A stretch of DNA of 64,000 nucleotides from an uncultured Gammaproteobacteria bacterium (GCA_964590105.1 CAZPYM010000001.1:1022-65021); one strand, 5' to 3'. Counted from the stretch's first letter, positions 4,672-48,310 are shown. Program-made: numbers and translations. The notes: generated by a model not told the origin, from the letters alone.

Positions 4672-4771
4672 AGCGGGTATAAATCACAAATTACAAATAA
4701 CAAATTACAAACAATAAAGCATAAAGCTACAAATTATAAATAAATAATTACGGGAACATATTTGTAGTTGT

Positions 4772-5634: not shown

Positions 5635-5710
5635 AACAAGTTGGCTAGTTTAAGCGGCAGTGGATGGGTCCAAGAACTGCTGAATAAACCAGCCAACTAA
5701 AAATTATTAC

Positions 5711-18170: not shown

Positions 18171-18235
18171 GGCGGGATTCAGGAATCCCGCCTACAGAAG
18201 ATGGAGTCAGGCGCGCTTCCGGAAGCGCGCCTGAC
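18171..18235. repeat. GC palindromic element copy 2 (ggcgggattc-ag-gaatcccgcc) plus adjacent 30-bp perfect palindrome
   Basis: The first hairpin at 18171-18192 matches 2941-2962. The second hairpin, gtcaggcgcgcttcc|ggaagcgcgcctgac, lies at 18206-18235. Both sit directly after the stop of the LTD gene. Confidence 0.75.
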
Positions 18236-18314
18236 TGTTGCCACCGTTTTAGCGGGCCGGAGCCTCTAGACATCGTTTTAGAAATTCGGTTCGTGGCTTT
18301 CATGTGTATAAACT

Positions 18315-18343
18315 TTGTTGATGTTTAAAATTTGTGGTATAAT
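18315..18343 (+). promoter_or_regulatory. sigma70-like promoter candidate (ttgttg -35 / 17 bp / tgg-tataat extended -10)
   Basis: Sequence match upstream of the first gene of the T4SS-like operon (start 18365). Confidence 0.45.
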
Positions 18344-18364: not shown

Positions 18365-21253
18365 TTGATGCGTAGTCATTTGAAGAAAATCTGGCTTAGT
18401 TTTAAAAGTAATCTCAAGCGGTTTTTTGGGGTTGTTAATTTTGTTTTTGTTCCGAAACGTCGGGCTTTCAGAATAGGATTAGTTTTGACTATCCTGATTA
18501 GCGTTTTTCTTGTTGGCACATCTGTCTATGCTGCAGGCGACATAAGCGACAAAATCCTGGATTTTTTCAACTGGGTTCTTTTCTATATTGCCATGGCGCT
18601 CGGCTGGGTTGCTCTAAAAGTATTTGCCTTGGTTATCATTGTCAGTTCATATAATAATTTTGTCACTTCAGCCGCCGTCACCAAGGGCTGGGTTTTGATC
18701 AGGGACGTGTGCAATTTGTTCTTTGTCCTGATACTTTTGGTGATTGCTTTTAACATTATTCTCGGCGTAGAAAAATATTCGCCAAAGAAAATGTTGTTCA
18801 ATGTTGTTATTGCCGCGATCTTGGTGAATTTTAGTAAATTAATTTGCGGGTTGGTAATCGATTTTGGCCAGGTGGTCATGATGACTTTTGTTAATGGCTA
18901 TTCAGCAACAGCCGGCGCGAATTTAGTTGAGGGGCTTGGTTTGAATTATCTTTTAAAAATGAGTGGAGACAATGCCTCGGGGGGGGCGAAGCAAATTGAG
19001 GCGCCGACCAATCTTAGTATTTTCATTGCCTTATTTATAGCGATATTTATTTTGATAATGACAATTTTTGTAACGATTTTCATTCTGGCGCTTCTGGTTA
19101 TGCGCATTGTTCAATTATGGATTTTAGTGGTTTTGTCGCCGGCCGCTTTTATGCTTGAGGCGATTCCTATCGGCGGCATGCAGAAAAGAGCTGGCGACTG
19201 GTGGAGCAAATTCGGCTGGACAGTGGCGGTTGGGCCTTTTATGGCTTTTTTCCTCTGGCTTAGTTTGCTGGTGATGTCAGATCCAGGGAAAAACATGCTG
19301 GCGGATAACATGAAGACCGCGGATGAATTGCAAGCAAAATCAGCCGGATCTACTGTGTCTGGGATTTCGCATCTGGATAAACTCGCTCAGTCGGCTATTG
19401 GACTAGCGCTACTTATGGCTAGTTTAGTGATCGCGCAGGAAGCGGGCGGAGTGGTTGGCGGGGCAGCTGGAAAATTTCAAGGGTATACTGGTAAGATCGC
19501 CAAATCAGTGGGCGGAAGGATGACCGGTTATAACGCGGGTAGAGATAGAGGCGTTGCCATGTATAAGGGATATGCTGAAAAACAGGGCGCAAAAAAAGCA
19601 GAAACAATGGCAAAATATTCAAGGGTGGGAGAAAAAGCGTTTGCGGCTAAAGAGAGCGGTATCCGAGGTTTAAAAAGAACTGCGGCTTTGCCATATACAG
19701 CGGGAAAAATGCTAGCTAAAGGGGGCGCTAAGGGCGCTAAATGGGGCGGTAGAAAGATTGCTGAAACTAAGACAGGAAAAGCTGTTGCTGCAACATATCA
19801 AAAAGTTAAAGGAAAGGCTGGTGGCGCTTTAGCGAATGCAAAGGGGAAAATTGGTGATCGTTTGGCGCAATTGCCTGGAGCTGAATTTGCGGGAAAAGCC
19901 ACAAGAGCTGTTGGAGGTTTTGTTGGAGAAAAAGCAAAGGAGGTCTGGGCAAAGACTGACAAGGCCGGCGTGAGAAATTTGGTAGCCGCTGATGCTGTTG
20001 ATCAGTCAATTCTAAAAAAAGCCAGAGAACAGGGTGGTGAAAATTTATCTGCCAGAAATATCAATAAAGAAGAAGATTTGCGTCGAGTTCTTAATGATGG
20101 CGGCGAAAATAAAGGTTCCAGAGTGGCCGCAGCTATGAAACTTGCCAAAGCCGGTGTCATAGAAAGTCCGAAAGAAGCAAAGCTGATAAGATCTCTGACC
20201 AAGGGAGACAGGGAAGCTTCAGATACAGTACGAGAAGATTTAATGAAGAAACAAGCCAATCATGCTTTTAATATGGATGATCCGAGAGAAGTTGATACAC
20301 TCCATGAAAAAATAAAGAACGGCGACATTGATATAACAAAACAGAACGCATCGGCCTACGGCGACGCCCGGTTTATGCAGGTGAGCAGAGAGGCTCTGGG
20401 TGATAAAGTTTTCGGCAAGAAAATTGGCGAAGTAGCCAAGCGTTCGGCGGAGCACAAAGAAACGGCTACCGGAACGGTCCGCGATATGGCCCAGAGCCAG
20501 CACGCTGAAATAGCGAGATTGCAGTCACTTGCCGCAGATGGAAATCAACCGGAAGCAAAACGTCAAGAAGCGGAAGCAGCTCTTCCAGAAAAGCAAAAAT
20601 CAGCTGATGATTTCAGAAGAACAGTGGCTGAAGTTACTAATGATTTAAATGAGGCTTTTGGCGCTAGAAATGTTGACGGAAGTTTAAACAAGGTGGATGG
20701 CAAGGTTAAAATCGATCCTTCTCAAGAGGCAAATATGGGACAATATATTAGAGGGCTTTCAGGAAAAAGACTGGCTGATTTTGATATGAAGGAAGACGCT
20801 CTTAGCCATATTGCAGTCAATGTGAGCGTTCAACAGCTGGCAAATTTGGCGATGTCAAATGAACCTGGTTCAAATGACAAGGTCCAGCAAATAGTAGAAA
20901 GGATCCATGAAGTAGGCGATACAAAACGCATTACCCAAGTTGCCGGTAATCAAGTGGTAATGGATGCTTTGGGTCAAGAAATAAGAACAAAAGTTGAGGC
21001 CGTTAAAGCGGCTACGCCAGCGCCAACACCGGCAGGTGTTAAAACGGCCGGTGCCGTCGCGCCAGCAGGAGGCGCAGCAACTGCGCCGACAGAAGGCGCA
21101 TCAGCCGCTCCGGCAGAAGGTGCAACAGCCGCAGAGCCGGCAAAGTCACCACTTATAGTTGGCGCAAGTGATGCTGATTTTAATAAAGCAAAACAGGATA
21201 TGAATAAAGCCGGCGGATTTGAGTCAGCGCTCCGCGGCGGCAAAGTGTCATAA
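18365..21253 (+). CDS. VirB6/PrgH-like polytopic membrane protein with long Lys/Ala/Gly-rich C-terminal extension
   Basis: 962 aa. Six or more TM helices in the first 320 aa, at the position of a VirB6 homologue in a Gram-positive-type T4SS operon. It is followed by a roughly 640-aa hydrophilic tail full of 'AGKxAKxG' repeats and an Ala/Pro-rich C-terminus. Confidence 0.5.
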   Translation: MMRSHLKKIWLSFKSNLKRFFGVVNFVFVPKRRAFRIGLVLTILISVFLVGTSVYAAGDISDKILDFFNWVLFYIAMALGWVALKVFALVIIVSSYNNFVTSAAVTKGWVLIRDVCNLFFVLILLVIAFNIILGVEKYSPKKMLFNVVIAAILVNFSKLICGLVIDFGQVVMMTFVNGYSATAGANLVEGLGLNYLLKMSGDNASGGAKQIEAPTNLSIFIALFIAIFILIMTIFVTIFILALLVMRIVQLWILVVLSPAAFMLEAIPIGGMQKRAGDWWSKFGWTVAVGPFMAFFLWLSLLVMSDPGKNMLADNMKTADELQAKSAGSTVSGISHLDKLAQSAIGLALLMASLVIAQEAGGVVGGAAGKFQGYTGKIAKSVGGRMTGYNAGRDRGVAMYKGYAEKQGAKKAETMAKYSRVGEKAFAAKESGIRGLKRTAALPYTAGKMLAKGGAKGAKWGGRKIAETKTGKAVAATYQKVKGKAGGALANAKGKIGDRLAQLPGAEFAGKATRAVGGFVGEKAKEVWAKTDKAGVRNLVAADAVDQSILKKAREQGGENLSARNINKEEDLRRVLNDGGENKGSRVAAAMKLAKAGVIESPKEAKLIRSLTKGDREASDTVREDLMKKQANHAFNMDDPREVDTLHEKIKNGDIDITKQNASAYGDARFMQVSREALGDKVFGKKIGEVAKRSAEHKETATGTVRDMAQSQHAEIARLQSLAADGNQPEAKRQEAEAALPEKQKSADDFRRTVAEVTNDLNEAFGARNVDGSLNKVDGKVKIDPSQEANMGQYIRGLSGKRLADFDMKEDALSHIAVNVSVQQLANLAMSNEPGSNDKVQQIVERIHEVGDTKRITQVAGNQVVMDALGQEIRTKVEAVKAATPAPTPAGVKTAGAVAPAGGAATAPTEGASAAPAEGATAAEPAKSPLIVGASDADFNKAKQDMNKAGGFESALRGGKVS

Positions 21254-21278
21254 GTAAAGAAAGTATAATCAAGGAACA

Positions 21279-22829
21279 ATGAATTCAAAGACAAAACCAA
21301 CAAAACCATTAGCGCAAATATTGCCACTAAATGTTGCCGCGGCGCTGAATGTTGATTTTGGTGGTCAAACTAATGTTGAGATAGCCGGAAAATTTGGCTT
21401 ATCAGTCGGGCAACTGGCAAGAATGACTGGACTCATCGGCGAGATTTATAATAAAAAAATACCAGTTGGTCAGATTGATTTTGAGCTGGCCTCGCGTTTG
21501 GGTTTGGCAAAAGATAAAGTTGCAAAACTTGCTTTGGAAATTTGCGGTAAACGATTAATGATTGTTAATACGGTCTGGTTTGACGGCGCAGTAGGGAAGA
21601 AAATCAAAGAACTTGGTGGTGTGGCGGATGATTATAATGAATTTATTGCTGAATATGTGGAAAATGTTATCAGCGAAAAAGCAGAAGAAACGGCTACGCA
21701 AAGAATAGAGCAAGAAGAGGAAAAAATTACATTGAAAAAAGCTATAAAGAAAAAGATTGAAGAGGATCCAATTATGTTGAAAGATCCGCTTGCAGAAAAG
21801 CAATCGCTGAAAAAAGTTTTTGGCACTAATGTTGTACATGTATTAAGTTCAGGGGATTATAGATTGAAAATAGAATTAAATATCCGATTGATCACTTTGT
21901 TATTAAACGATGAGCCGGAGCAGGTTTTTCACAAAGAACTTCTGACTGCCCTGTACAACAATCATGAAGTTTTAACTAGTAAAAGAATATTATTAAAAGA
22001 CGAAAAAGTTGAGCCGACTATTAGCAACTGGTTAAAAGATTATGTCGGGTCAGTCGGACAGGATGAAACCGGTAGCGCCATTCAAAAAGCCCAGTACTTT
22101 ACTTCGTCGCCTAATATCCGAGCATTACTAAAAGAAGAAAAAGAGTTGGTCGACGGATTATTTAAATTTTATATTGCTTTGCAGAATTTTTATAGCAATG
22201 TCAGAAAAATGGACATGGAAGATATTTATATTTTTCCTTTTACTCCAAAAGAACAAGAGTCTTTATTAAAAGAAATTAGCGAACTTGAATCGGAAGAAGA
22301 AGAAGAAATTGCGTCGGTTGAAGGAGAAAAAGCAGAAGTAGGGACGATTAACATAATGGAACTATATCAGGACAAACCTGACGATCGTCAGAAAATTGAT
22401 GAGGAAAAGCAAAAGATTGTTCAAAATACGCGTAAAGAATATGACAAGATCGCGGATGCGATGGAGCCATTTTTATTAAATCGAAAGAAGCATAGTATTT
22501 TAGCGTGTCTTGAGCTTTTGGTTGAAACGGGCGCTCTCGATAATATGCTCGGCCAGGATGAGCGTTATCAGGGGTTTTTGTCTGGCTATTTCAAACGCAA
22601 CAATTTGCAGGCAGAAGACGAAAAGTTCAAAAAAGATCCGTATCAGGCAAAATACGTGCAAGCATTTTTACGATTTGTGTTTTTGGAAAGACTTGGCCTG
22701 GCGCCCGAAGAAGGCGCGCGGATCGCTGCCAATTATTCCAATATTTTTCGCAATAAAGGCGCGATTCGATATTCGCAACTAGCTTATTTGGATTTAAGCG
22801 ATAATAAATTTAAGTGGAGTGAATTGTAG
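21279..22829 (+). CDS. hypothetical protein (T4SS-like operon member)
   Basis: 516 aa, cytoplasmic-looking, Glu/Lys-rich. It sits 25 bp downstream of the VirB6-like gene. No recognisable motif. Confidence 0.6.
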   Translation: MNSKTKPTKPLAQILPLNVAAALNVDFGGQTNVEIAGKFGLSVGQLARMTGLIGEIYNKKIPVGQIDFELASRLGLAKDKVAKLALEICGKRLMIVNTVWFDGAVGKKIKELGGVADDYNEFIAEYVENVISEKAEETATQRIEQEEEKITLKKAIKKKIEEDPIMLKDPLAEKQSLKKVFGTNVVHVLSSGDYRLKIELNIRLITLLLNDEPEQVFHKELLTALYNNHEVLTSKRILLKDEKVEPTISNWLKDYVGSVGQDETGSAIQKAQYFTSSPNIRALLKEEKELVDGLFKFYIALQNFYSNVRKMDMEDIYIFPFTPKEQESLLKEISELESEEEEEIASVEGEKAEVGTINIMELYQDKPDDRQKIDEEKQKIVQNTRKEYDKIADAMEPFLLNRKKHSILACLELLVETGALDNMLGQDERYQGFLSGYFKRNNLQAEDEKFKKDPYQAKYVQAFLRFVFLERLGLAPEEGARIAANYSNIFRNKGAIRYSQLAYLDLSDNKFKWSEL

Positions 22830-22904
22830 GGGCGGGGAGTAGTAATTAGTAAGTAGTGAGATCTTCACTCACCATTCACCACTTTTCACTCGTTTCTGTT
22901 TAAT

Positions 22905-24113
22905 ATGCTAAACGATTATATATTAGTAAAAGACAAAGACGGCGAGCTGAAATATTTCAAGGACGGCAAATTTTTTAGTGTTGAGGAAATCGCCGAACAA
23001 AACAAGCAACGGGTTTTGCAAGCCCGGGAGCCAAAAAAGAAAGAATTAAAGCCTGACTTTACTTTGGAAACGCAAAAAAAAGCTGCTGTCAAGCCGATAA
23101 TTATTAAAAAAGAACAAGAAAAACCAATAATTATTGAAAAAGTACCTAAAAAATCAAGCGCCATTGAAAAAGCGCTGGAAAAAACGGTGCGTCCGCTAAT
23201 TCCGCCATTGCCTGCTCATGAAATTGAGTTTGAACAATTGGCCGGCGAAGATGATTTCAATAGCAAAAGATTGGCGGAACAAAAGCTTGTCGGCGTTAAA
23301 GTTGACGAGGCAATAAAAAAATTAAAAATTCAATTCAGCGATCCGCAGATCGAGAGCCGTTTCCGAAATATTTTAACCACTTTTTTCCGCGGAGTCCGAA
23401 CTGTGAGAGAACTCGGTTATATGCTTGGATTGCCGAAAGTCAGCGGAGGATTGGAATTACCAAAAGATAAAATAAGTTTAATATTGGCGGTTTTGGAACA
23501 AGAGCTCGTGGAAATGAACAAAGAGCGCCGTCAGATCGCGGCCAGAATAGAACAAAAGCCGGTTGATTTGGAGCACCGGCTGGAGCCGCCGCCGCCCTTG
23601 ATTATTAAAAAACCTGAGGATCGTTCAGCGGTTGAAAAAACAGCCCGCCGGCTTCAATCCTCTCCGTCTTTGATTAGGAATGAAGTTGGCGCAGATTTAA
23701 GCAGGACTCGCGTTAGCCGGCCGCAACCCGCTCTGCAAAAAAATGTTTTTGCACCGCGGCCAAGAATTGAAGACATGAAGGGGAATCGTCAATTAATCGG
23801 ACCGGTTGAAGAATTGGAAACCATGGAGCTAGGCGATTTTCGTCGGCTTGGCCGAGAAGAACAGGAAATAAAAAAACACTTGCTGGAAAAATTCAAGGTG
23901 CTTGCCGACCAGTCGTTATTAAAAAAATTACAAGGATTAAAAGCCTGGAAATCTTCACCTGTGTATAAAATATATTTATCGATGACTGTTGCAGGGATTA
24001 GAAACAGAGTGCCTCTTTCTCAGGTAATTGAAGATCGTCAATTAAATCATCAAGCGACGTTGACGTTAAGCGAATATGAAATGATTGGACAGCTGAATCA
24101 GGAATTGGAGTAG
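22905..24113 (+). CDS. hypothetical protein (T4SS-like operon member)
   Basis: 402 aa, with a Lys/Pro/Ile-rich N-terminus. No recognisable motif. Confidence 0.6.
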   Translation: MLNDYILVKDKDGELKYFKDGKFFSVEEIAEQNKQRVLQAREPKKKELKPDFTLETQKKAAVKPIIIKKEQEKPIIIEKVPKKSSAIEKALEKTVRPLIPPLPAHEIEFEQLAGEDDFNSKRLAEQKLVGVKVDEAIKKLKIQFSDPQIESRFRNILTTFFRGVRTVRELGYMLGLPKVSGGLELPKDKISLILAVLEQELVEMNKERRQIAARIEQKPVDLEHRLEPPPPLIIKKPEDRSAVEKTARRLQSSPSLIRNEVGADLSRTRVSRPQPALQKNVFAPRPRIEDMKGNRQLIGPVEELETMELGDFRRLGREEQEIKKHLLEKFKVLADQSLLKKLQGLKAWKSSPVYKIYLSMTVAGIRNRVPLSQVIEDRQLNHQATLTLSEYEMIGQLNQELE

Positions 24114-24211
24114 CAATAGAAAAGAAACTGGAAACTGGAAATTAGGGTTTATTGGAGAAAAGAAAAGCCCTGAATTATGCTTGGTAATATTAGATACGAG
24201 AAACAAAAATT

Positions 24212-24658
24212 ATGCAGCAATTTATCGTGCCCCAATTTATTGATGTGGAAGATAAAATTATTGGCCCGATCACTACGCGGCAATTTGTTATTGTGTTGGT
24301 CGGAGCGCTCGTAACTTTTATTTTATTTAAATTATTAGCTTTTGCGTATTTTGTTTTATCAGCCATCGTGGTGATGCCACTTGCGGCGATGCTGGCTTTT
24401 GCTCGGGTCAATGGCCGACCGGTTCATTTTTTTCTGTTGAATTTTCTTCAGACCTCAAAAAGATCAAAGTTGCGCGTTTGGAATAGAGAAGCGTATGTGA
24501 ATGTAGTCCAGGTGGTGGAAAGCCAAATTAAAGAAAAACCAAAGGTGCAGGCAGTCAAAGCAGCTGTTTCCGGTTCCCGTCTGCGCGATATTTCGCTGGT
24601 GGTAAATACTGGTGGCATTTATCAGGGTGAAGAGATTGCGAATGATTTATCTCAATAA
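24212..24658 (+). CDS. PrgI/VirB3-like small membrane protein
   Basis: The N-terminal 'VPQFIDVEDKIIGPITTRQFVIVLVGALVTF' matches the PrgI/TcpE-family signature (xPkdl..yedk..G.lt.RQ..) followed by two TM helices. It lies directly upstream of the VirB4 genes, as in Gram-positive T4SS operons. Confidence 0.55.
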   Translation: MQQFIVPQFIDVEDKIIGPITTRQFVIVLVGALVTFILFKLLAFAYFVLSAIVVMPLAAMLAFARVNGRPVHFFLLNFLQTSKRSKLRVWNREAYVNVVQVVESQIKEKPKVQAVKAAVSGSRLRDISLVVNTGGIYQGEEIANDLSQ

Positions 24659-24770
24659 TAATTTTAATTAAATAATTTCTTCCCCGCTTTAGCGGGATCT
24701 CCTACGTTGGCAGACGGTCAGACTAAGGCCTGCTTGTCGACAGGCAGGCCTGGCGGAAATTAAATTATAT

Positions 24771-25451
24771 ATGCACAGCAAAAAATTAGCCGGCAACAAA
24801 ATAACTCAGTCAACGCAATTATTTTTGGACATTGCCGAAATAAAAAATGACGCCGTGATTTTAAAAGACGGAACTTTGCGAGCGGTTCTGATGGTTTCGA
24901 GCATTAATTTTGCCCTAAAATCAGAAGATGAGCAAAATGCATTGGTTTCTGCTTATGTTACTTTTTTGAATTATTTGAATTTTCCAATTCAGATTGTAAT
25001 TCAATCCAGAAAGCTGGACATTGATGCCTATATCAAGAGAATCGAGGAGGCAGAGAAGAATTTAACTAATGATTTGCTTCGGCGACAGATTGTCAATTAC
25101 AAAGCATATATTAGAGAGCTGGTGGAGCTGGGTGATATTATGAGCAAGCATTTTTTTATTGTGGTGCCGTACAGCCCGCTCGATAGCTCGAAAAGCAGTT
25201 TTTCCAGCCGGTTGTCCGCGGTTTTTACTCCGGCCAAAGTGATCCAACTCAAACAAGAAAGATTTGAAAAATACGCGCATGAATTAAACCAGCGGTTGGA
25301 GCATGTCAACATGAACATTTCCTCTCTCGGCCTCACGACTGCGCGCCTTGATACGCAGAGCTTGATAGAGCTTTATTACAACGTTTATAATCCGGCCATT
25401 GCCAGAAGTCAAAAACTGGTTGATTTGGAAAAATTAAGAGTTGAACACTAA
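24771..25451 (+). CDS. VirB4/TraE-like N-terminal domain (separate ORF)
   Basis: 'LFLDIAEIKNDAVILKDGTLRAVLMVSSINFALKSEDEQNALVSAYVTFLNYLNFPIQIVIQSRKLD' resembles the N-terminal domain of Gram-positive VirB4 homologues. It ends in TAA 30 bp before the ATPase ORF. Confidence 0.5.
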   Translation: MHSKKLAGNKITQSTQLFLDIAEIKNDAVILKDGTLRAVLMVSSINFALKSEDEQNALVSAYVTFLNYLNFPIQIVIQSRKLDIDAYIKRIEEAEKNLTNDLLRRQIVNYKAYIRELVELGDIMSKHFFIVVPYSPLDSSKSSFSSRLSAVFTPAKVIQLKQERFEKYAHELNQRLEHVNMNISSLGLTTARLDTQSLIELYYNVYNPAIARSQKLVDLEKLRVEH

Positions 25452-25483
25452 TAATTTGAATAAAATAATTGAAAGAATAAAAT

Positions 25484-27379
25484 ATGTTTAAACCAGAAGA
25501 TGTCAAGAAAGCTCCGATAATTTCTGCGCCAATAGCGGTGCCGGAGACTTCTGAGCTACAAAAGACACAAAAAACAGAGCAAGAGGTGGTTGTTCAAAAA
25601 GTGACCATGGAGCAGGAAAAAACTTATAGGGGCGGATTGACATCGGTCCTCGACATTATTGCCCCGGCTGCTTTTGAAGTGACCCCCGATTCTGTGCGGA
25701 TAGGCGGTTTATTTGCCAGAACATTATTTGTAATGACTTACCCCCGCTATATTGCTGTCGGCTGGTTTGCCCCGATTCTTAATTATAATGCCACGCTTGA
25801 TGTAAGTATGTTTTTTTATCCGATGGAGTCTCCGGTTGTTTTAAAACAGTTGAGAAATAAGGTCGGAATTCTGACCGCCCAACTTACTACTGACGCGGAA
25901 AAAGGAGCACCGCGCGATCCAATGAGGGAAACAGCGTTGCGCGATATTGAAAAACTGCGCGATGATTTGACTCAAGGAGTGGAAAAATTTTTCCAGTTTT
26001 CGCTCTATATCACGCTTTATGAAAAAGACATGAAAGCCCTTGATATGCTAACCGAAGATATAGAAGCTGTGCTGGGTACGCGTTCGATCTTGTCAAAAAG
26101 AACTTTTTATCAGGCGGAACAGGGGTTCAGTTCAACCGCGCCTCTTTGCAATGATGAACTGATGATTACCGCCAATCTTAATTCCTCGCCGATTGCCGCT
26201 TCTTTTCCTTTTATTTCCTCGGAACTGACTTCAGATGAAGGAATTTTATTTGGCATCAATCGCCACAATAATAGCTTAATTCTTTTTGACCGGTTTTCTT
26301 TGCAAAATGCCAATTCTTGCGTATTTGCCACTTCCGGCGCCGGTAAAAGTTATACAATCAAACTGGAAGTTTTGCGCAGTATGATGCTCGGCACGGATGT
26401 GATCATTATTGATCCGGAAAGAGAATACAAGAATTTAGCTTCAGCTGTCGGCGGTACCTATATTAATATTTCACTTAATTCGGAAAGTAAAATTAATCCA
26501 TTTGATTTGCCGAGAAAAATGGGCGATATGAGTACGGCAGACATCATCCGGAGCGCTGTCATTACTTTGAAGGGGCTAATGCGCATCATGATCGGTGATA
26601 TGACCCATCAGGAGGATTCAATCATGGATCGAGCCTTGATTGAAACTTACGCGAAAAAAGATATTACTCCGGAAGCTGATTTGGAGAAAATTGAACCGCC
26701 GATTATGCAGGACCTCTATGAGGTGCTTGACGGCATGGAGGGCGCGTCGGATCTGGCGCTCCGGTTGAAAAAATTTACTACCGGCACTTTTTCCGGTTTG
26801 TTCAATTCGCCGACAAATGTGGACATGAATAATCAGCTGGTTTGTTTCACTGTTCGGGATTTGGAAGATGAACTTCGGCCAATGGCGATTTACAATATTG
26901 TTAATTATATTTGGAATGTTGTCCGCTCGGAAATTAAAAAAAGAATATTGGTAATTGACGAGGCCTGGTGGCTGATGCAGCACGAGGATTCGGCGCGATT
27001 CATTTTTGCGCTAGTAAAAAGATGTCGCAAATATTACCTTGGCGTGACTACGATTACGCAGGATGTAAATGATTTTTTGCTTTCACAGTATGGGCAGGCT
27101 ATTGTTACCAATTCAGCCCTAAAAATACTTTTGAAACAAGCGCCGTCTTCAATGGAATTGGTGCAAAAAGTTTTCCAGCTTACCGAAGGTGAAAAATATC
27201 TGCTTCTGGAGTGTAATATCGGCGAAGGAATATTTTTTGCCGGTAATCGGCACGCGGCTATTCGAGTAGTGGCTTCAGGTCTTGAAGACCAGCTGATCAC
27301 GACTGATCCGCGTCAGCTTTTGGAACAAGAAAAAAAGCAAAAGCAGGCTACGGAAGACGAAGCAGAGGTAGCAGTGTAA
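25484..27379 (+). CDS. virB4: VirB4/TraE/PrgJ-like type IV secretion ATPase
   Basis: Central 'FARTLFVMTYPRYIAVGWFAPIL' CagE/TrbE/VirB4 signature. Walker A 'ATSGAGKSY'. Walker B 'RILVIDEAWWLMQ'. 631 aa. Confidence 0.85.
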   Translation: MFKPEDVKKAPIISAPIAVPETSELQKTQKTEQEVVVQKVTMEQEKTYRGGLTSVLDIIAPAAFEVTPDSVRIGGLFARTLFVMTYPRYIAVGWFAPILNYNATLDVSMFFYPMESPVVLKQLRNKVGILTAQLTTDAEKGAPRDPMRETALRDIEKLRDDLTQGVEKFFQFSLYITLYEKDMKALDMLTEDIEAVLGTRSILSKRTFYQAEQGFSSTAPLCNDELMITANLNSSPIAASFPFISSELTSDEGILFGINRHNNSLILFDRFSLQNANSCVFATSGAGKSYTIKLEVLRSMMLGTDVIIIDPEREYKNLASAVGGTYINISLNSESKINPFDLPRKMGDMSTADIIRSAVITLKGLMRIMIGDMTHQEDSIMDRALIETYAKKDITPEADLEKIEPPIMQDLYEVLDGMEGASDLALRLKKFTTGTFSGLFNSPTNVDMNNQLVCFTVRDLEDELRPMAIYNIVNYIWNVVRSEIKKRILVIDEAWWLMQHEDSARFIFALVKRCRKYYLGVTTITQDVNDFLLSQYGQAIVTNSALKILLKQAPSSMELVQKVFQLTEGEKYLLLECNIGEGIFFAGNRHAAIRVVASGLEDQLITTDPRQLLEQEKKQKQATEDEAEVAV

Positions 27380-27402
27380 AAAATAAAATAAAATTTTGAC
27401 TT

Positions 27403-27984
27403 ATGTCCAATAGAGCAAAAGTAATCACAATTATCGTTGTCGGATTATTGGTTATCGCCGGGATAATTTATTTTTTCGTGCGTTCTGAAATGGAGCAAAA
27501 AGGCGTGAAGATGATAGATGAAAATGCGCCAGTGCCTCAGGCGGAAAACACTTTAGGCCAGGAGCCGGCGATCAAAGTTGCGCCGCCCACAAAAGAAGAA
27601 AAGCAGGCTTCCTCAGTAAAAGCAGTGGCGCAGACTTTTGCCGAAAGGTTTGGTTCATATTCAAATCACGCCAAGTATAAGAACTTTGACGAACTTTACT
27701 CCATGATGACTGCCGGAATGGAAGATTGGGTTAAAAACACATATATTCCCCAGTTAAATAATGAGCATAGTTCTGAAGGATTTTATTATCAGATCACCAC
27801 GGAAGCGCCGGTAGTAAATATCGTCGCGCAAACAGAAACAGCGGTAAAGGTTTTGCTTTCAACGCAGAGAAGGGAGCAATCAGGCGAGCAGAGTTCGGAA
27901 TTTTTGCAGGATTTGGAGCTGACTTTGGTGAAACAGGGTAATAATTGGTTTGTTGATGCGGCATTCTGGCAAGAAAGGGAGTAA
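27403..27984 (+). CDS. VirB8/PrgL-like bitopic membrane protein (candidate)
   Basis: 193 aa. One N-terminal TM, then a roughly 150-aa periplasmic domain of the size and Trp/aromatic pattern of NTF2-like VirB8. The call rests on position in the operon plus topology. Confidence 0.35.
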   Translation: MSNRAKVITIIVVGLLVIAGIIYFFVRSEMEQKGVKMIDENAPVPQAENTLGQEPAIKVAPPTKEEKQASSVKAVAQTFAERFGSYSNHAKYKNFDELYSMMTAGMEDWVKNTYIPQLNNEHSSEGFYYQITTEAPVVNIVAQTETAVKVLLSTQRREQSGEQSSEFLQDLELTLVKQGNNWFVDAAFWQERE

Positions 27985-28004: not shown

Positions 28005-28724
28005 ATGAAAAGCAATTGTAAAATAGTGTTCAATAAAATTTGGGAAAATGCGCTTGACTGTATTTTCCCAAAAGAATGTTATGATTGTGGAAAAGAGGGG
28101 GAATATTTATGCCCCTCTTGTTTTGATAATATTCAGTTGATTGAAAATTTCCCCTGTTTCTTTTGCAATGAACCTGGACACGACAGGGGCGTTTGTTCGG
28201 TTTGTTCGGCCAAGACGCAAATTGACCGGGCGATCGTGGCGGCAACTTATCTGAATAATTTAACCGGCAAGCTGGTGGAGGAATTTAAATACAATTTTGT
28301 TGAAGATTTAAAAAATATTCTGGTTAAGATTTTACAGCGGCAGATTGATCGCCGGCAGCTGGCAGGCGTTTTTTGGAACCACGTTTTGCTTCCGATACCT
28401 CTTCACAAAAAACGCCTGGCCGAGCGCGGGTTCAACCAATCCGCCGAGCTTGCCAAAGGGCTCCGGATAAAATATAATTGCACAGTGGATGAGAGCCTTT
28501 TGAAGCGGGCGAAAAACACCAGCCAGCAGGCCAAGCTGAACCGCGAACAGAGGCTGGACAATCTGCAAAACGCCTTTGTATTTAATCTAAAAAAACAACC
28601 GCCGGAAAGAGTAATTTTGCTTGACGATGTGCTGACCACAGGCGCGACTTTTTGCGAGGCGGCCAGAGTTTTAAAAGAAAGAGGCGTAAAAGAGGTGATT
28701 TGTCTGGCGATTTGCCATGGATAG
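28005..28724 (+). CDS. comFC: ComF family protein (ComFC, PRTase-type competence protein)
   Basis: N-terminal double CxxC zinc finger. 'PLHKKRLAERGFNQSAELA' and the PRTase motif 'VILLDDVLTTGATF'. Confidence 0.85.
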   Translation: MKSNCKIVFNKIWENALDCIFPKECYDCGKEGEYLCPSCFDNIQLIENFPCFFCNEPGHDRGVCSVCSAKTQIDRAIVAATYLNNLTGKLVEEFKYNFVEDLKNILVKILQRQIDRRQLAGVFWNHVLLPIPLHKKRLAERGFNQSAELAKGLRIKYNCTVDESLLKRAKNTSQQAKLNREQRLDNLQNAFVFNLKKQPPERVILLDDVLTTGATFCEAARVLKERGVKEVICLAICHG

Positions 28725-39502: not shown

Positions 39503-41584
39503 ATGGTAAAATATAATGGTTATAAAGATAATATGGATCTGCAAACGCCGATCAGCGAACTCACGCGCGTGGGCAAAACTACGGCCGCGCGTTTGAAAAA
39601 TCTTGGCATGCAAACAATTCAGGATCTAATTTTTTATTTTCCGTTCCGTTATGAAGATTTTAGTTTAATTAAAGATATCAATGAGCTGATTCCAAATGAG
39701 CCGGTGACAGTCAGGGGTAAAGTGCAATTAATCGCCAACCGAAGAAGTTTTCGTAAAAGAAAAATTGTTACAGAGGCTTTGGTTACTGACGAAACCGGCA
39801 GTGTCAAGGTGATCTGGTTTAATCAGCCATTTATTTCGAAAATAATTAAAGTCGGAGATGAGGTTTTTTTGTCTGGAAAATTGGATGAAGAGCGCTTGCA
39901 GTTTGTCAGTCCTGAATATGAAAAAGCAAAAGCCAATTCTTTGACTGTGCATACGGCCAGATTGGTCCCGATTTATCATTTGACGCAGGGAGTAACGCAA
40001 AAGCAGTTGCGTTTTCTGATCAGCCAAACCGATAAAGTGATTTTGCAAATTGAAGATTATCTGCCCGAAGAAATTATCAGCAAATATAAGTTTTTGCGGC
40101 TAAATAAAGCTTTGTTTAATATTCATTTTCCTTCAGGTAAGCAAAACGCAGAAGCAGCCAGAAAGAGATTGCAATTTGACGAACTTTTCTTGATCCAATT
40201 GGGGATTCAAAAATTAAAAAAAGAACTTCAGCAAAACAAATCGTCAAAAATAAAATTTCTGGAAAAGCAGACAAAAGATTTTGTGGCAGATCTTCCGTTT
40301 AAGCTAACCAATGCCCAAAAAAAATGTTCATGGGAAATAATTCGGGATCTGGAGAAAGCCAGGCCTATGAACCGTTTGTTGGAGGGCGATGTCGGGTCAG
40401 GCAAAACAGTAGTCGTGGCGCTGGCTATTCTGAATGCAGTCCTCAATGGCTACAAAGTTGTAATGATGGCGCCAACGGAAATTTTAGCGATTCAGCATTA
40501 TCAAACATTACAAAAATTATTCGCAAAACAAAAATTTTCCATTGCTTTATTCACCGGGAGTAGGCAGGAGGTTAACGGAGAAAAGGCAGGAAAAAAACTT
40601 CTTTTGCAAAAGCTTGCACTTGGTGAATTTGATATTGTTATTGGAACACAGGCCTTAATCCAGGAAAACGTCAAAATAAAAGATTTAGGGCTAGTGGTAG
40701 TGGACGAACAGCACCGGTTTGGCGTCAGCCAGCGGAAATCATTGGTTCAACGCGGGAAAAAGGATTATCTGCCGCACTTTCTTTCTCTGACCGCCACGCC
40801 AATTCCGCGCACTTTAGTTCTAACTTTGTACGGCGACCTGGATTTGTCAATAATCAATGAAATGCCGCCGGGCCGCAAACCAGTAATCACCCGCGTTGTT
40901 TATGAACAGCAGAGGTTGCAGACCTATGAATTTATCCGCCAGCAGGTGCGGTCAGGTCGGCAGGTATTTGTAATTTGTCCTTTAATTGATCCTTCCGACA
41001 GCATGGGGGTAAAATCAGTAAAACAAGAATTTGAAAGGTTGGACAAGCAGGTTTTTCCGGATTTAAAAATTAGCTTAATGCACGGACGGTTAAAACCAAA
41101 AGAAAAAGAACAGGCAATGAAGGAGTTCAATGAGGGAAAATCAAATATTTTGGTGTCCACTTCAGTGATTGAAGTCGGGATTGACATACCGAACGCCGTG
41201 ATTATGATGATCGAAGGCGCGGACAGATTTGGCCTGGCTCAATTGCATCAATTTCGCGGACGGGTCGGTCGGGGAGAGCATCAATCTTATTGTTTTGTTT
41301 TCAGCGAGAGTAATTCACCGGTAACAAAAAGGCGCCTGAAATATTTTGAAGAATGTTCTGATGGTTTCAAGCTGGCGGAAAAAGATCTTGAATTGCGAGG
41401 TTCTGGTGAAGTGTACGGCACCAGACAATCCGGCTTGCCAGATTTGAAAATTGCCAGCCTGACTGATGTGGCGCTGATTCAGGTCGCTCAGACCGAGGCG
41501 CTGGCGCTTGTTGAACAGGATAAAATCAGCGTTGCGTTGGAAAAGGTTTTAGCTAAACAAAATTTAAGTTTGCATTTTGAATAA
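39503..41584 (+). CDS. recG: ATP-dependent DNA helicase RecG
   Basis: 693 aa. Wedge/OB N-terminus, helicase motifs 'EGDVGSGKT', 'VVVDEQHRFG', 'QLHQFRGRVGRG'. Confidence 0.9.
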   Translation: MVKYNGYKDNMDLQTPISELTRVGKTTAARLKNLGMQTIQDLIFYFPFRYEDFSLIKDINELIPNEPVTVRGKVQLIANRRSFRKRKIVTEALVTDETGSVKVIWFNQPFISKIIKVGDEVFLSGKLDEERLQFVSPEYEKAKANSLTVHTARLVPIYHLTQGVTQKQLRFLISQTDKVILQIEDYLPEEIISKYKFLRLNKALFNIHFPSGKQNAEAARKRLQFDELFLIQLGIQKLKKELQQNKSSKIKFLEKQTKDFVADLPFKLTNAQKKCSWEIIRDLEKARPMNRLLEGDVGSGKTVVVALAILNAVLNGYKVVMMAPTEILAIQHYQTLQKLFAKQKFSIALFTGSRQEVNGEKAGKKLLLQKLALGEFDIVIGTQALIQENVKIKDLGLVVVDEQHRFGVSQRKSLVQRGKKDYLPHFLSLTATPIPRTLVLTLYGDLDLSIINEMPPGRKPVITRVVYEQQRLQTYEFIRQQVRSGRQVFVICPLIDPSDSMGVKSVKQEFERLDKQVFPDLKISLMHGRLKPKEKEQAMKEFNEGKSNILVSTSVIEVGIDIPNAVIMMIEGADRFGLAQLHQFRGRVGRGEHQSYCFVFSESNSPVTKRRLKYFEECSDGFKLAEKDLELRGSGEVYGTRQSGLPDLKIASLTDVALIQVAQTEALALVEQDKISVALEKVLAKQNLSLHFE

Positions 41585-42151: not shown

Positions 42152-43495
42152 TTATTTAATCAGTTCTTTGATGTTTTTTGCTTTGGTAATTTTTATTTTA
42201 TAATTTTTTGATAATTTGACATCTGGAATAATGATTTGCTGGAAGCCCAGTTTTTCCGCTTCAGAAATTCTTTTTTCTATATTAGAAACTGGTCTTATTT
42301 CTCCGCCAAGTCCGAGTTCTCCGAGAGCCAGTGTATCTTTTGGAATAATATAATTTTTCAACGCCGAGCTGATTGCAAGCGCAACTGCCAGATCAACGGC
42401 CGGTTCTGTTATTTTGAATCCACCAACAATATTCAGATGAATGTCTTGATTATTGAGATTCAAATTTGCCCGTTTGAACAAGACTGCGGCGATCATTTGT
42501 AGTCTATTTAAATCATAGCCTGATGTTTTGCGTTGCGGATAGCCGAAGATAGTCGGCGTAACTAGAGCCTGAACTTCAACCAAAAAAGCGCGCGTGCCCT
42601 CCATAAAACAACTGATTACCGAGCCGGCAATATTTTGGTTTGAATCGGATAAAAATGCTTTAGTCGGATCTTTTACTTCAATTAATCCGGCGCTAGTCAT
42701 TTCCAAAACCCCGATTTCATTGGTGGAGCCAAATCTGTTTTTGGTACTCCGTAGAATTCTGTAACCGTGGAACTTGTCTCCTTCGAGATACAAAACAACA
42801 TCAACCAAGTGTTCCAGCGTTTTTGGCCCGGCTACCGAACCGTCTTTAGTCACATGTCCGGTAATAATAACCGGCACATGGGTGGTTTTTGCCGCTTCAA
42901 GGAGCTTTACTGTGCAGGCACGGATTTGCGAAACATTGCCGGCTTCTGATTCAACATCACTCGAATAAATTGTTTGAATGGAATCGATAACAGCAATCCG
43001 TGGTTTTAATTGATGAATGGCCGCAGAAATTTGCTCAACATTTGTTTCGGAAAGGAATTTTAGTTTGTCGGCCTTGTAATTTAGCCGATCCATTCTGAGT
43101 TTAATTTGTTGGGCGGATTCTTCGCCGGAAATATAAAGAAGATGCTCTCCTGCCCCTTCCAATTGTTTTAGAATTTGCAGGACAAGCGTTGATTTGCCAA
43201 TACCGGGTTCGCCGCCAATCAGTATTATGCTTCCTCTGACTATCCCGCCACCAAAGATTTGATCTATTTCATTTAGGCCGAGTTTTATACGTTCAAAATT
43301 TTTTGATGATATCTGATTAAAATCCACTAACTTTTTATTATCAAAGGCGATTGTTTTACTTACTTTTACCTTTTCACTTTGACCATGTGACTCTTCAACT
43401 GTTCCCCATGCTCCACAACTCAAACAACGCCCAGACCATTTTGGAAACTGGGCGTCGCATTTGGAGCAAAAATAAATTATTTTCTGGCTTGTCAT
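42152..43495 (-). CDS. radA: DNA repair protein RadA/Sms
   Basis: N-terminal C4 zinc finger (CSKCDAQFPKWSGRCLSCGAW), Walker A 'GGEPGIGKSTL', KNRFG motif, Lon-like C-terminus. Confidence 0.92.
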   Translation of the reverse strand: MTSQKIIYFCSKCDAQFPKWSGRCLSCGAWGTVEESHGQSEKVKVSKTIAFDNKKLVDFNQISSKNFERIKLGLNEIDQIFGGGIVRGSIILIGGEPGIGKSTLVLQILKQLEGAGEHLLYISGEESAQQIKLRMDRLNYKADKLKFLSETNVEQISAAIHQLKPRIAVIDSIQTIYSSDVESEAGNVSQIRACTVKLLEAAKTTHVPVIITGHVTKDGSVAGPKTLEHLVDVVLYLEGDKFHGYRILRSTKNRFGSTNEIGVLEMTSAGLIEVKDPTKAFLSDSNQNIAGSVISCFMEGTRAFLVEVQALVTPTIFGYPQRKTSGYDLNRLQMIAAVLFKRANLNLNNQDIHLNIVGGFKITEPAVDLAVALAISSALKNYIIPKDTLALGELGLGGEIRPVSNIEKRISEAEKLGFQQIIIPDVKLSKNYKIKITKAKNIKELIK

Positions 43496-43517: not shown

Positions 43518-45122
43518 TTATGGCATGCAAACATGTTGCATTAAATCACAGATTGGCCCGATTGGAGCATTTATACAATCATCATCATCTTCGCAACTGC
43601 CGGGAGTAAGTTCGCATTTGCCTGATTGGCAGGTTTCCCAAGCTTGGCAGGCGGGAGTACATGTAAGGCTTTGTCCAGCAGGGTCATAACATTTATGGTT
43701 AATAACATCGCAAGTGCTTTTTGCGGGATCGACAAGACAATCTCCATCATTATTGCACGCGCCAGTTTTTGGATAGCAGCTACCCTCGTCACATATTTCC
43801 CAGCTAGCACAGACTGGCACACAAGGAATATAAAGTTTTCCGCATTTACCAGGAGTCCATGTGCTGCCGGAGGCGCCACCTTTGGTAGTCATGTTTTTGT
43901 ATTGATCTCGATTGGCTGTAAATACAGAGCACCAGTCTTCTGTGATTGTTTCTTTAAGTTTGTCAGTTTTTCCAGTTGTGGCGTTTTTTGCGGTGGCAGT
44001 GCAACAACCTTGAGGCGCTGGGGTTTCTGTAGGTGAAGGATAGAATACCACACCCCAAGTTGGACCGATTGCTAGTTTTGTCCAAGCTTGGTTATAGCCA
44101 CACCCATCAGATTTGAAGTGACCGGAGGCTGGACCTTCGCCGATTATCAATGAGCAAAAGTTGCAGCCATTTGGATCTGCCATGGCATCGTCGACTTTTT
44201 TTTGACAGCCTTTAAATCGACTATAACCTTCTGCACCGGATTGAAATTCCATTCCATCGCCCAGTGATACGCCCACATGACCGAATTTCCAAAGTAGTCC
44301 GACGGGCAGGTTGTTTTTATTTGCCGATGTAACTACTTCCGTAATCCACCCTTTATTTTCTGCATTTTTCCCAGATTGTTGAGCGCTACCATTATAGGGT
44401 AGGTCGCAACCGATATATTTGAGAAACTTGGTGGCGGTGTATGCGCAATGACAAGGCCCCATGCAGATATTTAAGTCATGTAATTTTTGCGCTGCATCTT
44501 GAGCTGCTTTTTTTGAACAAGGAGGAAGAGTATTTGGCCCGATTAAATCTTCTATTTCATTTCCCGCGCCGAGTGGAGCTGTCATCGAGGCTGGTGGTTC
44601 TTCTGAAAAATCCTCGACTTGTTTAACTGTTTCAGTGTTTAGGCCACTCAATTTAACTAGATTTGGATTAATAATACTCAAAACTAAGTGCGCGCACATG
44701 AGTACGGCCAGACCGGTAATGGCGCCGAAAATCATTGTATTGGCTTTTTTAACATTTGCCGGTATGCCGCCGGCTGTCAGGTATAATATGCCTCCAATCA
44801 TTAAAATTACAACAGCAAAAATTGATCCTAGCGTAATGCTGTATTTATAAATTGCCACCATATACTCGGCAATCCATGGAATAGAAACAGTTTCTCCCGG
44901 GGTAAATTCATAAGTAGCAAGGCTAGGCATCCCTGGAATAGGAATGTTAATTTTTGGCGCGTCCATTTGTTGCTTGGGGGCGGGTGTTTGGGCAAAACAA
45001 ATCAGGGGCAGTAGAATAAAACTGGCGATTATAAAAACAATGAATAAACGCCCGGGCTTTATTTTTGAGAATGTTTTCATATTTTGTTTTAGCAAAACAG
45101 GAGTTGATTTTTGTCTGCCCAC
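43518..45122 (-). CDS. secreted Cys-rich protein with two-helix hydrophobic module and CHAP-like peptidase domain
   Basis: Signal peptide. Conserved module 'PKINIPIPGMPSLATYEFTPGETVSIPWIAEYMVAIYKYSITLGSIFAVVILMIGGILYLTAGG...TMIFGAITGLAVLMCAHLVLSIINPNLVKLSG'. CHAP-like Cys ('GPCHCAYTATKFL') and His ('KFGHVGVSLGDG'). The C-terminus carries 14 or more Cys in 'C-x4-DC-x5-8-CD' modules. Confidence 0.6.
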   Translation of the reverse strand: MGRQKSTPVLLKQNMKTFSKIKPGRLFIVFIIASFILLPLICFAQTPAPKQQMDAPKINIPIPGMPSLATYEFTPGETVSIPWIAEYMVAIYKYSITLGSIFAVVILMIGGILYLTAGGIPANVKKANTMIFGAITGLAVLMCAHLVLSIINPNLVKLSGLNTETVKQVEDFSEEPPASMTAPLGAGNEIEDLIGPNTLPPCSKKAAQDAAQKLHDLNICMGPCHCAYTATKFLKYIGCDLPYNGSAQQSGKNAENKGWITEVVTSANKNNLPVGLLWKFGHVGVSLGDGMEFQSGAEGYSRFKGCQKKVDDAMADPNGCNFCSLIIGEGPASGHFKSDGCGYNQAWTKLAIGPTWGVVFYPSPTETPAPQGCCTATAKNATTGKTDKLKETITEDWCSVFTANRDQYKNMTTKGGASGSTWTPGKCGKLYIPCVPVCASWEICDEGSCYPKTGACNNDGDCLVDPAKSTCDVINHKCYDPAGQSLTCTPACQAWETCQSGKCELTPGSCEDDDDCINAPIGPICDLMQHVCMP

Positions 45123-45223
45123 CCCTGCGAGATTTAGTCAGAATTATTTTTCTTCTGGCCACCTCACCGTCGAAAATTTGGTTTATTTCCTTAATTCAAT
45201 TTTTGCTCTCCCTTATGTTTTTG

Positions 45224-48200: not shown

Positions 48201-48310
48201 CCTATATTCAGTTTTGGATCTTCGGCCAGAGTTATAGTCGGAAATAAAAAAACAATCGCGCAAAATAATATCAGGGAGTATTTTATGTTTGTTTTTAGAG
48301 AAGAACTCAT
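45224..48310 (-). CDS. large secreted Cys-rich protein with the same hydrophobic module and two CHAP/C39-like domains
   Basis: 1028 aa. Signal peptide. About 250 aa of Cys-rich repeats. The module 'KPKINIPIPGLADFETQEYTAGETVSIPWIAQYIVAVYSYAIILGAILAVLIFMFGGIIYITSGG...NPNLVKLSG' is about 60% identical to that of the neighbouring 534-aa protein. Papain-like Cys/His pairs ('ASGCGLTSTAMV'...'GGHYIVVANYDG'; 'CALIASRIIRNAG'...'VQHVSIST'). Confidence 0.6.
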   Translation of the reverse strand: MSSSLKTNIKYSLILFCAIVFLFPTITLAEDPKLNIGEKCTNNLDLPTSECASGDCEDSSLTVAGDNFCVCKTQNDCELEASLLNGGISDPNEIWECKDGAPESFDLHYCESSKGAILLPLTAEEAAKLEAAGAGGCTSDANCPGNQYCNNADKSCVDKIAIGQQCPTDITHCISGICENKIIPPNAPQDICICKKNDQCPDGKYCADGTGLDSGLCVDKLGKDADCNINNEAACQSGKCEVTPPSTAGKCTEPAAAPVAPTAPTSGTSTPAAAAKLQMVKPKINIPIPGLADFETQEYTAGETVSIPWIAQYIVAVYSYAIILGAILAVLIFMFGGIIYITSGGSSEFIQKGKTMMFGAVSGIVVLLSAYLILNIINPNLVKLSGTTIETVKPIGNIIEGEWGSIATVNPTLSTPGNLPYYYQFDSKWACFPLTGNKCSYQDSKVDGETLSCGIPKGYKPTFPGVSTLPWPAGQEKGITVCREKSNCEAIEATYHVSEMCKNPNLKDAAWCEKNPYGKNNFVAYCKNVTGTTNRNVNNIQASGCGLTSTAMVATFNGLSVIPPDVARWVQENGIRSPAGSVAGTSAPTCCGVDNKGIEAFTKGNGLDAKQMSQSNKAEIKQLLSKGIPIIFHVKTKDKAGNKAPCCPFTAGGHYIVVANYDGTTYQIHDPSHKTKNECGGDAKTATETDLWDACGVYDIVYIYQKGNYGKVPELLTSDPGAPSGPATVTAGACHAGALDLSPYSTNGCYDAKLSCTPEQIKSTAMLWGNSHIVTAPNTCALIASRIIRNAGCKIPGFGSIGSAKDQLTALGWKGLIVGGKGGAAQNYYSQMPVGLLYSGGFNAVQHVSISTGQGGDVESSTVFSACQSSGCSQAQKTTCAKNATPQMKTACLQGGMNIPNMNAVDVHRSVFNCGETPDGDGGFQGEKNQCIAYTKNNRIKGVNAIFFPVINPADTTLGCCKSDLILHSKYKTNDVSAAQNGISVNKPTCDSLFGSWSSGGSCLAPYTPHDIITSLICSTDIHTGKCH

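Follow-up and report, generated by a model that had tools for sequence, protein, structure and literature searches.

What does a type IV secretion system (T4SS) do when no relaxase or coupling-protein gene is found near it and the gene that follows its operon is comFC? This question is raised by an operon in a 64 kb stretch of DNA (GCA_964590105.1, CAZPYM010000001.1:1022-65021, deposited as coming from an uncultured Gammaproteobacteria bacterium), which we call the window and from whose first letter all open reading frame (ORF) coordinates are counted. We found that the locus is a chromosomal T4SS cluster of the kind that characterises the ultra-small ABY1 Patescibacteria, and in our judgement it is best, and quite probably, explained as a vertically inherited ABY1 T4SS derived from MPF-FATA systems, whose relaxase and coupling-protein genes were lost or never stood nearby. 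Of the roles that can be proposed from the sequence, the import of DNA or nucleoprotein linked to ComFC, RadA and RecG ranks first, and we put it forward tentatively; a function in host attachment, by way of a pilus, adhesion or protein delivery, comes close behind. With the first-pass annotation, which had been made from the same DNA, we infer that the machine may have been turned to DNA uptake or to interaction with a host.

Between 18365 and 27984 on the plus strand we found seven co-directional ORFs of 962, 516, 402, 148, 226, 631 and 193 amino acids (aa), separated by gaps of 23–112 nt. The tightly spaced plus-strand cluster of the first-pass annotation is thus real, with seven genes in place of the nine claimed and including a 226-aa TrsD-like/VirB4 N-domain gene (24771-25451) that its list of components had left out. 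The comFC gene (28005-28724, plus strand) starts 20 nt past the end of the 193-aa gene and is probably co-transcribed with the operon, whose genes are as follows:

18365..21253, plus strand: extended VirB6-like polytopic membrane protein, 962 aa, recognised by a profile-profile match
21279..22829, plus strand: orphan cytosolic protein u516, 516 aa, acidic, isoelectric point (pI) 5.3
22905..24113, plus strand: orphan cytosolic protein u402, 402 aa, basic, pI 9.5
24212..24658, plus strand: PrgI/VirB3-like small membrane protein, 148 aa, Pfam PF12666 PrgI
24771..25451, plus strand: TrsD-like protein, a stand-alone VirB4 N-terminal domain, 226 aa, NCBIfam matches below the cut-offs
25484..27379, plus strand: VirB4 ATPase of the CD1110/MPF-FATA type, without the N-domain, 631 aa, NF045971
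27403..27984, plus strand: PrgL/VirB8-like bitopic protein, 193 aa, with an N-terminal transmembrane helix and an extracytoplasmic domain of about 120 aa

For the comparison with relatives one genome per species was scanned and the best 80 of 435 VirB4-relative loci, with 67–83% identity, were used. All 80 belong to metagenome-assembled genomes of Patescibacteria, labelled Falkowbacteria, Kuenenbacteria, Magasanikbacteria or Parcubacteria/Patescibacteria, the first three of which we take to belong to the GTDB class ABY1, and the best curated family of the VirB4 itself is CD1110 (MPF-FATA). Using tblastn of the window proteins we could show that gene order and strand are conserved across as many as 80 species-level genomes, which bears out the co-conservation that had been suggested as a check. 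A match was found for the TrsD-like protein and VirB4 in 80 of the 80 loci each, for PrgI in 73, the VirB8-like protein in 71, u402 in 69, ComF in 50, the VirB6-like protein in 39 and u516 in 31, counts that are lowered by the truncation of many contigs; MurG, which lies downstream, is retained in only 9 of the 80. A survey of 3,035 Patescibacteria genomes (Quinonero-Coronel et al. 2025, PMC12102498) describes a monophyletic Patescibacteria VirB4 clade nested in MPF-FATA, with TrsD, PrgI/VirB3, VirB6 and VirB2-like genes accompanying virB4, VirB8 homologues nearly confined to ABY1, and relaxases being rare.

The earlier VirB4 and PrgI calls were both confirmed above curated cut-offs. The 631-aa protein reached 355.6 bits against NCBIfam NF045971 (conju_CD1110, cut-off 325) and 97.7 bits against Pfam P-loop_TraG, and it possesses the Walker A motif ATSGAGKS at residue 282 and the Walker B motif ILVIDEAW. 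Its alignment to NF045971 spans model positions 172-730 of 752, and the 226-aa ORF matches NCBIfam VirB4_plasma at positions 93-235 (E 2.5e-12), TrsD NF041427 (E 5e-6) and the CD1110 model at positions 19-97, all below the cut-offs; therefore the 226-aa ORF supplies the missing VirB4 N-domain. As the two are separate ORFs in 80 of 80 related loci, with variable gaps between them, the split of VirB4 is genuine, and a frameshift as its cause could be ruled out. The 148-aa protein carries the signature MQQFIVPQFIDVEDKIIGPITTRQ read earlier and scores 39.2 bits against Pfam PF12666 PrgI (cut-off 27). It adjoins the VirB4 region, which thereby has the VirB3/PrgI-like partner that a VirB4-based T4SS requires.

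The genes of conjugation are missing from the neighbourhood, as had been stated. Pfam scans of 40 window ORFs, including every ORF of at least 400 aa and leaving out several of 120–330 aa, revealed no relaxase, VirD4 or integrase. None was found either among the called genes in about 4 kb to the left of the window, where the contig ends, and 10 kb to its right, where a relaxase or VirD4 just outside would have changed the picture; these flanks hold one XerC/D-type tyrosine recombinase of 269–284 aa (L082, 12940-13749). Could the locus nevertheless be a conjugative element or a decaying integrative and conjugative element (ICE), with its relaxase, coupling protein and integrase outside the window? 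Its VirB4 belongs to a family named after conjugative elements (CD1110), and the recombinase lies only about 3 kb left of the window. The latter is a short protein of the XerC/D type and about 21 kb distant from the cluster, GC content and skew are uniform over the window, and gene order together with flanking housekeeping genes is the same across species-level genomes. No tRNA or repeat boundary was seen near the cluster, though no dedicated search for att repeats was made, and the tRNAs of the window lie only at 32–36 kb. In addition, a relaxase was reported near only 15 of 2,474 Patescibacteria virB4 genes (PMC12102498). From the window, the flanks covered and the related loci we therefore agree that the locus is not an ICE: that it is a conjugative element with its mobility genes outside the window is barely conceivable, and a conjugative or ICE origin is effectively excluded. 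The recombinase gene adjoins DUF6390 and TspO genes, with no sign of an att boundary.

The identities of the 193-aa and the 962-aa protein follow from profile-profile comparison with hhalign. A 60-sequence profile of the 193-aa family matched a 7-sequence PrgL profile (Prob 88.5%, E 2.7e-6, 106 columns) over its whole extracytoplasmic domain, and PrgL was the top match of this family among 35 pCF10 and R388 transfer proteins. This supports homology to PrgL on the level of sequence and with it the candidate VirB8-like call, PrgL being reported as a structural VirB8 homologue (PMC12102498). A comparison of the family with the Gram-negative VirB8 protein TrwG was not significant, and a homolog search with the 193-aa protein alone returned only 4 proteins. 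For the 962-aa protein, a 37-sequence profile of the membrane core matched an 8-sequence MPF_T VirB6/TrwI profile (Prob 84.2%, E 7.3e-6, 75 columns) in an alignment centred on the conserved 'SPxAF...P...WW' helices; TrwI was the top match among the same 35 proteins, and 5 of the 37 orthologs matched Pfam TrbL/VirB6 directly (best E 3.5e-4). The signal arose only against the 8-sequence family profile, with the single sequences of PrgH (E 0.19) and TrwI (E 0.05) not being significant, no match of the VirB6 core to plasmids by tblastn, and nothing meaningful among PDB chains for a profile of the N-terminal region. As the window protein itself has no direct family match, the support for the VirB6-like call, set against the controls, is moderate.

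These controls were part of the 15 profile pairs that we compared, of which 2 were targeted and 13 were not; the non-targeted pairs gave E 0.09 or worse, except for one unexpected match between the N-termini of u516 and u402. They also bear on the objection that the VirB6, VirB8 and TrsD calls are over-interpreted and that only VirB4 and PrgI are real, in a non-secretory membrane ATPase role, for which one can point to the lack of any Pfam, NCBIfam or PDB sequence match for the VirB6-like and VirB8-like proteins of the window and to the negative comparison with PrgH. We regard this as very improbable, as the E-values of the two targeted matches undercut those of the 13 control pairs by some four orders of magnitude, each profile picks the right protein among 35 candidates, the matches span the expected domains, the gene positions agree with the model systems, and the published survey makes the same assignments (PMC12102498).

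The 962-aa VirB6-like protein has about 7–8 transmembrane or hydrophobic segments at residues 32-365, followed by about 600 hydrophilic aa. The first-pass annotation was right in describing a hydrophilic tail, but its length is about 600 and not 640 aa, and only residues 371-640 (about 270 aa) are strongly Ala/Lys/Gly-rich. As a whole it has a Lys/Ala/Gly-rich composition and a net basic charge, and its sequence is poorly conserved; a tail is present in all 36 full-length orthologs, with a length of 199–875 aa and a net positive charge in 33 of the 36. The tail is probably cytoplasmic. The claim that such a tail has no described counterpart had to be given up, since 'extended VirB6' proteins with long hydrophilic extensions are a described class (PMC12857230) and the tail is therefore not without precedent. 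Its Ala/Pro-rich end contains an in-frame tandem repeat (21058-21132, 24-bp unit, 3.1 copies). A composition like that of the tail is also seen in a 574-aa protein (49671-51395, minus strand, pI 9.8) with (V/A)AGKG-type Lys/Ala/Gly repeats (21-bp unit, 5.5 copies, 50844-50957), a Cys-rich hydrophobic C-terminus and no Pfam match.

Between the VirB6-like and the PrgI gene lie the two orphans. Neither u516 nor u402 shows transmembrane segments or a Pfam, NCBIfam or PDB sequence match, and against the 35 pCF10 and R388 proteins both gave E 0.03 or worse with hhalign. AlphaFold2, run for u516 with an alignment of homologues, predicts an all-alpha protein with a C-terminal beta-hairpin (mean pLDDT 84.8); the u402 model (mean pLDDT 79.2) consists of three modules with values above 90 and disordered linkers between them, namely an N-terminal beta-hairpin module and helical domains at 115-214 and 300-402, pLDDT exceeding 94 within the domains, and its best Foldseek match in the PDB had E 0.35. 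As no solved structure and no pCF10 or R388 protein was matched, the earlier statement that these two proteins have no counterpart in model T4SSs stands. The family profile of u402 found 2,608 clusters at 50% identity among 1.84 billion representatives, 2,099 of them at E 1e-30 or better, and u402 therefore represents a large unannotated family. The unexpected match among the control pairs joins the two orphans: the first ~100 residues of u516-family proteins match the module with which many u402-family proteins of other lineages (related loci L013-L079) begin (hhalign 83.7%, E 8e-6), whereas the u402 of the window has the beta-hairpin N-terminus (ILVKDKDGELKYFKDGKFF) in its place. This looks like a domain swap between adjacent orphan genes and therefore suggests, as far as sequence can tell, that u516 and u402 act together.

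Which genes surround this machine? The first-pass annotation had placed ComF, RecG, RadA and a prepilin peptidase in the neighbourhood; the first three could be identified by Pfam and NCBIfam, and the prepilin peptidase gene extends across the right end of the window:

28005..28724, plus strand: ComF(C)-family protein with a double zinc ribbon and a phosphoribosyltransferase domain, Pfam DZR_2 and Pribosyltran, comF TIGR00201 (E 1.2e-25, below the cut-off)
39503..41584, plus strand: RecG helicase, Pfam RecG_wedge, DEAD, Helicase_C and RecG_dom3_C
42152..43495, minus strand: RadA/Sms-type protein, Pfam zinc ribbon, KaiC-type ATPase and ChlI/Lon_C

The presence of all three genes in the window agrees with the survey, where comF, recG and radA are described as common in ABY1 T4SS loci (PMC12102498). 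In 40 of the 60 loci with enough downstream sequence ComF directly follows the VirB8-like gene, and in most of the remaining ones RadA comes next, co-directional and no more than about 1 kb away, and RecG lies farther on. Taking 51 related loci, 45 (~88%) have ComF or RadA at most 2.5 kb downstream on the same strand (RadA in 13), and ComF, RadA or RecG is present in the fetched flank of 49, across differing gene orders; RecG was seen less than 10 kb from the T4SS in 14 related loci. As the linkage survives these different gene orders, functional coupling is indicated more strongly than it would be by plain synteny.

The import of DNA or other macromolecules has been proposed for Patescibacteria T4SS (PMC12102498), and a model for this locus could look as follows. 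By analogy with model T4SSs, a translocon in the cytoplasmic membrane would consist of the extended VirB6-like channel, the PrgI/VirB3 anchor and the PrgL/VirB8-like bitopic scaffold. The VirB4 motor would be built from two polypeptides, the TrsD-like N-domain and the ATPase, and the acidic u516 and the basic u402 would be lineage-specific cytosolic additions to the translocon, while the surface part may be formed by VirB2-like pilin-module proteins encoded 16–20 kb away. Rather than exporting plasmid DNA, such a machine would take up DNA or nucleoprotein from a host cell or the environment and hand the incoming DNA to ComFC, RadA and RecG, with the orphan proteins and the basic VirB6 tail standing in for the coupling protein. 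Assembly and topology are those predicted from the components.

VirB4 also drives pilus biogenesis in model systems, and the machine might thus work outward, as a VirB2-like pilus or surface structure or for protein delivery in host attachment and exploitation, comF, radA and recG then being a mere conserved gene order in a streamlined genome. Candidates for such a surface structure are encoded in the window:

43518..48310, minus strand: two VirB2-like pilin-module proteins, 534 and 1028 aa, Pfam T4SS_pilin PF18895 below the cut-off

In both of these large, secreted or membrane proteins a two-transmembrane module, nearly identical between them (…KINIPIPG…ETVSIPWIA…INPNLVKLSG), is fused to a Cys-rich ectodomain, and the 1028-aa protein additionally has a C39-like peptidase domain (Peptidase_C39_2, 58 bits). 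Judged by sequence they are possible surface parts of the T4SS. Their hydrolase-type ectodomains, their position 16–20 kb from the cluster and the finding of the module 0.2–4.3 kb downstream of the T4SS operon in 4 relatives favour an outward function, as does the LTD surface protein encoded just upstream of the operon. The same direction is indicated by Southlakia epibionticum ML1, whose T4SS, which has no recognisable coupling or relaxase proteins, is essential together with a VirB2-like pilin array (Wang et al. 2023, PMC10633639), whereas comEC is dispensable, its deletion abolishing competence and leaving the cells viable (FEMS review 2025, PMC12857230). On the other side, the pilin-module matches to PF18895 are below the cut-off (E 9e-4 and 6e-4), the LTD gene is kept in only 9 of 80 loci and a strong hairpin separates it from the operon, and the association with ComF, RadA or RecG outlasts rearrangement in 45–49 of 51 loci, compared to 9 of 80 for MurG. 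An outward-working machine is therefore possible, and we hold it with reserve. The 574-aa gene at 49671-51395 shares the minus-strand gene run of the pilin-module proteins. Further observations downstream of the T4SS are a DPBB_1 protein (32466-33239, RlpA-like lytic transglycosylase-type) and a small C39-like peptidase (37463-38122), which from their sequences might be candidate cell-wall hydrolases standing in for VirB1.

Several points weigh against an ABY1 T4SS that imports DNA and have to be set beside the evidence given above. The essential role of the S. epibionticum T4SS is not exerted via ComEC-dependent transformation, since the comEC deletion is viable and the T4SS is essential (PMC12857230), and neither ComFA nor ComEC is found in the 64-kb window. 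The functions proposed for ABY1 T4SS are drawn from sequence and not from experiments in ABY1 organisms. ComF and RadA are identified by domain architecture and sub-threshold family scores, and the VirB6 and VirB8 calls are profile-profile matches of 84–88% probability and not above-threshold family hits: neither the 962-aa nor the 193-aa protein of the window has a Pfam or NCBIfam match, and the profile of the latter found nothing meaningful among PDB chains. The side of the membrane on which the VirB6 tail lies is uncertain because a count of 7 or 8 transmembrane segments flips it. T4CP homologues, that is, type IV coupling proteins, are present elsewhere in most Patescibacteria genomes (PMC12102498), so this genome, too, may encode a coupling protein at another site. 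Finally, the 80 loci are the closest VirB4 relatives and not the whole class.

Upstream of the operon, the two-LTD protein named in the first-pass annotation was recovered, with Pfam finding two LTD domains, and two sites lie between its gene and the first T4SS gene:

18206..18237: terminator-like palindrome between the LTD gene and the T4SS operon, read directly, arms AGTCAGGCGCGCTTCC/GGAAGCGCGCCTGACT
18315..18343, plus strand: promoter-like site, TTGTTG, 17-nt spacer and extended -10 TGgTATAAT, read from the sequence

The palindrome is perfect, 32 nt long, GC-rich and directly 3' of the LTD gene, and its terminator role is inferred only, as a strong T-run is lacking. The promoter proposed near 18315 could be upheld in so far as its elements are visible, with TGgTATAAT at 18335-18343, 20 nt ahead of the start codon, and a weak -35 at 18315; it stays below the threshold of the promoter scan and is not listed by it because the -35 agrees with the consensus at only 3 of 6 positions. 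A generic scan for promoters and terminators gave counts not clearly higher than in shuffled sequence. The LTD gene itself contains in-frame tandem repeats of 9-bp and 18-bp units (16758-16897). Upstream of it and of a 238-aa gene, a 40-bp intergenic tandem repeat (GCTCCGCGTGACTTCTCGCAATGACAGAGGGGAGAAGGTG) is present at 14794-14984 in 4.8 copies with 94% identity, which is not CRISPR-like because spacers are absent. Short tandem arrays of the heptamer AAATTAC occur in at least four intergenic regions (1096-1121, 4681-4751, 6912-6981 and 60985-61035) and could be a regulatory or structural motif. In the region 5077-11179, genes for an extracytoplasmic function (ECF) sigma factor and for a DUF5667 protein precede a 1311-aa ORF (7244-11179) without Pfam match, which may encode a surface protein under sigma/anti-sigma control.

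The T4SS of Patescibacteria is near-universal in a phylum with a large share of bacterial diversity and proved essential in the only species for which this was examined. The system found here is not of a new kind, yet it puts the question of T4SS function in ABY1 more sharply. The ComF/RadA adjacency, the basic VirB6 tail and the two orphans with their confidently predicted folds offer specific candidates for the parts that would handle the substrate and are still missing, both orphans being without relative among solved structures and one representing a family with over 2,600 clusters at 50% identity.

Among the known systems, the ComB system of Helicobacter pylori and the archaeal Ced system are VirB4-based DNA importers without relaxase or coupling protein, and likewise no such genes are found near the operon described here. 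H. pylori also employs ComFC downstream of DNA uptake. ComB, from a diderm, includes VirB7, VirB9 and VirB10, for which no homologues were found at this locus, and Ced uses CedA and CedB, against which our VirB4 reached 36.8 bits (CedB model, cut-off 700) and 26 bits on CedD. The absence of these family-specific subunits lowers membership in either family and not the functional analogy. One might go further and see here a dedicated monoderm DNA-import machine like ComB or Ced, in which the VirB6 tail and the u516/u402 pair are a new substrate-handling module that replaces coupling protein and relaxosome and passes DNA to ComFC, RadA and RecG; taken as a whole, this extension of the import model seems unlikely to us.

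With pCF10 prg/pcf of Enterococcus faecalis, the prototype of MPF-FATA, the locus shares the monoderm order VirB6-VirB3-VirB4 ... VirB8-like (prgH, prgI, prgJ, prgK, prgL), a VirB4 of the same CD1110 family and a PrgL-like protein of 193 aa. The canonical pCF10 order that had been claimed is not plainly present, as it is interrupted by two extra genes between VirB6 and VirB3 and by the TrsD-like gene between VirB3 and VirB4. pCF10 differs from the locus described here by its T4CP PcfC, relaxase PcfG, hydrolase PrgK and adhesins, none of which are found near our operon, and by an undivided VirB4. The present locus has its VirB4 in two polypeptides, an insertion of two unrelated cytosolic genes and an extended VirB6 tail, and no similarity of the 962-aa protein to PrgH could be detected. 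The extended VirB6 proteins, for example the VirB6 paralogs of Rickettsiales (PMC12857230), have the same polytopic core with a large hydrophilic C-proximal domain. The likeness is one of architecture; the tail here is basic, low-complexity and Lys/Ala/Gly-rich. In the Saccharimonadia system the cluster itself includes hydrolases and pilins arrayed in tandem, and this locus has neither.

The closest counterpart is the ABY1 arrangement of the Patescibacteria-clade T4SS, with which system, context and the idea of DNA import are already published (PMC12102498); the example studied by experiment is the essential T4SS of S. epibionticum ML1 (PMC10633639). In the sections of the survey that we consulted we found no mention of the orphan cytosolic pair with its shared module, the class-wide basic VirB6 tail or counts of ComF/RadA adjacency. 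Compared with this arrangement as described there, the locus shows no difference in kind: in both, a TrsD-like gene adjoins the gene for a VirB4 of MPF-FATA ancestry and is accompanied by PrgI/VirB3, VirB6 and, as is typical of ABY1, a VirB8/PrgL-like gene, the site is chromosomal, without relaxase or T4CP nearby and with comF, recG and radA around it, and VirB2-like pilin-domain genes, here candidates below the Pfam cut-off, lie within about 20 coding sequences.

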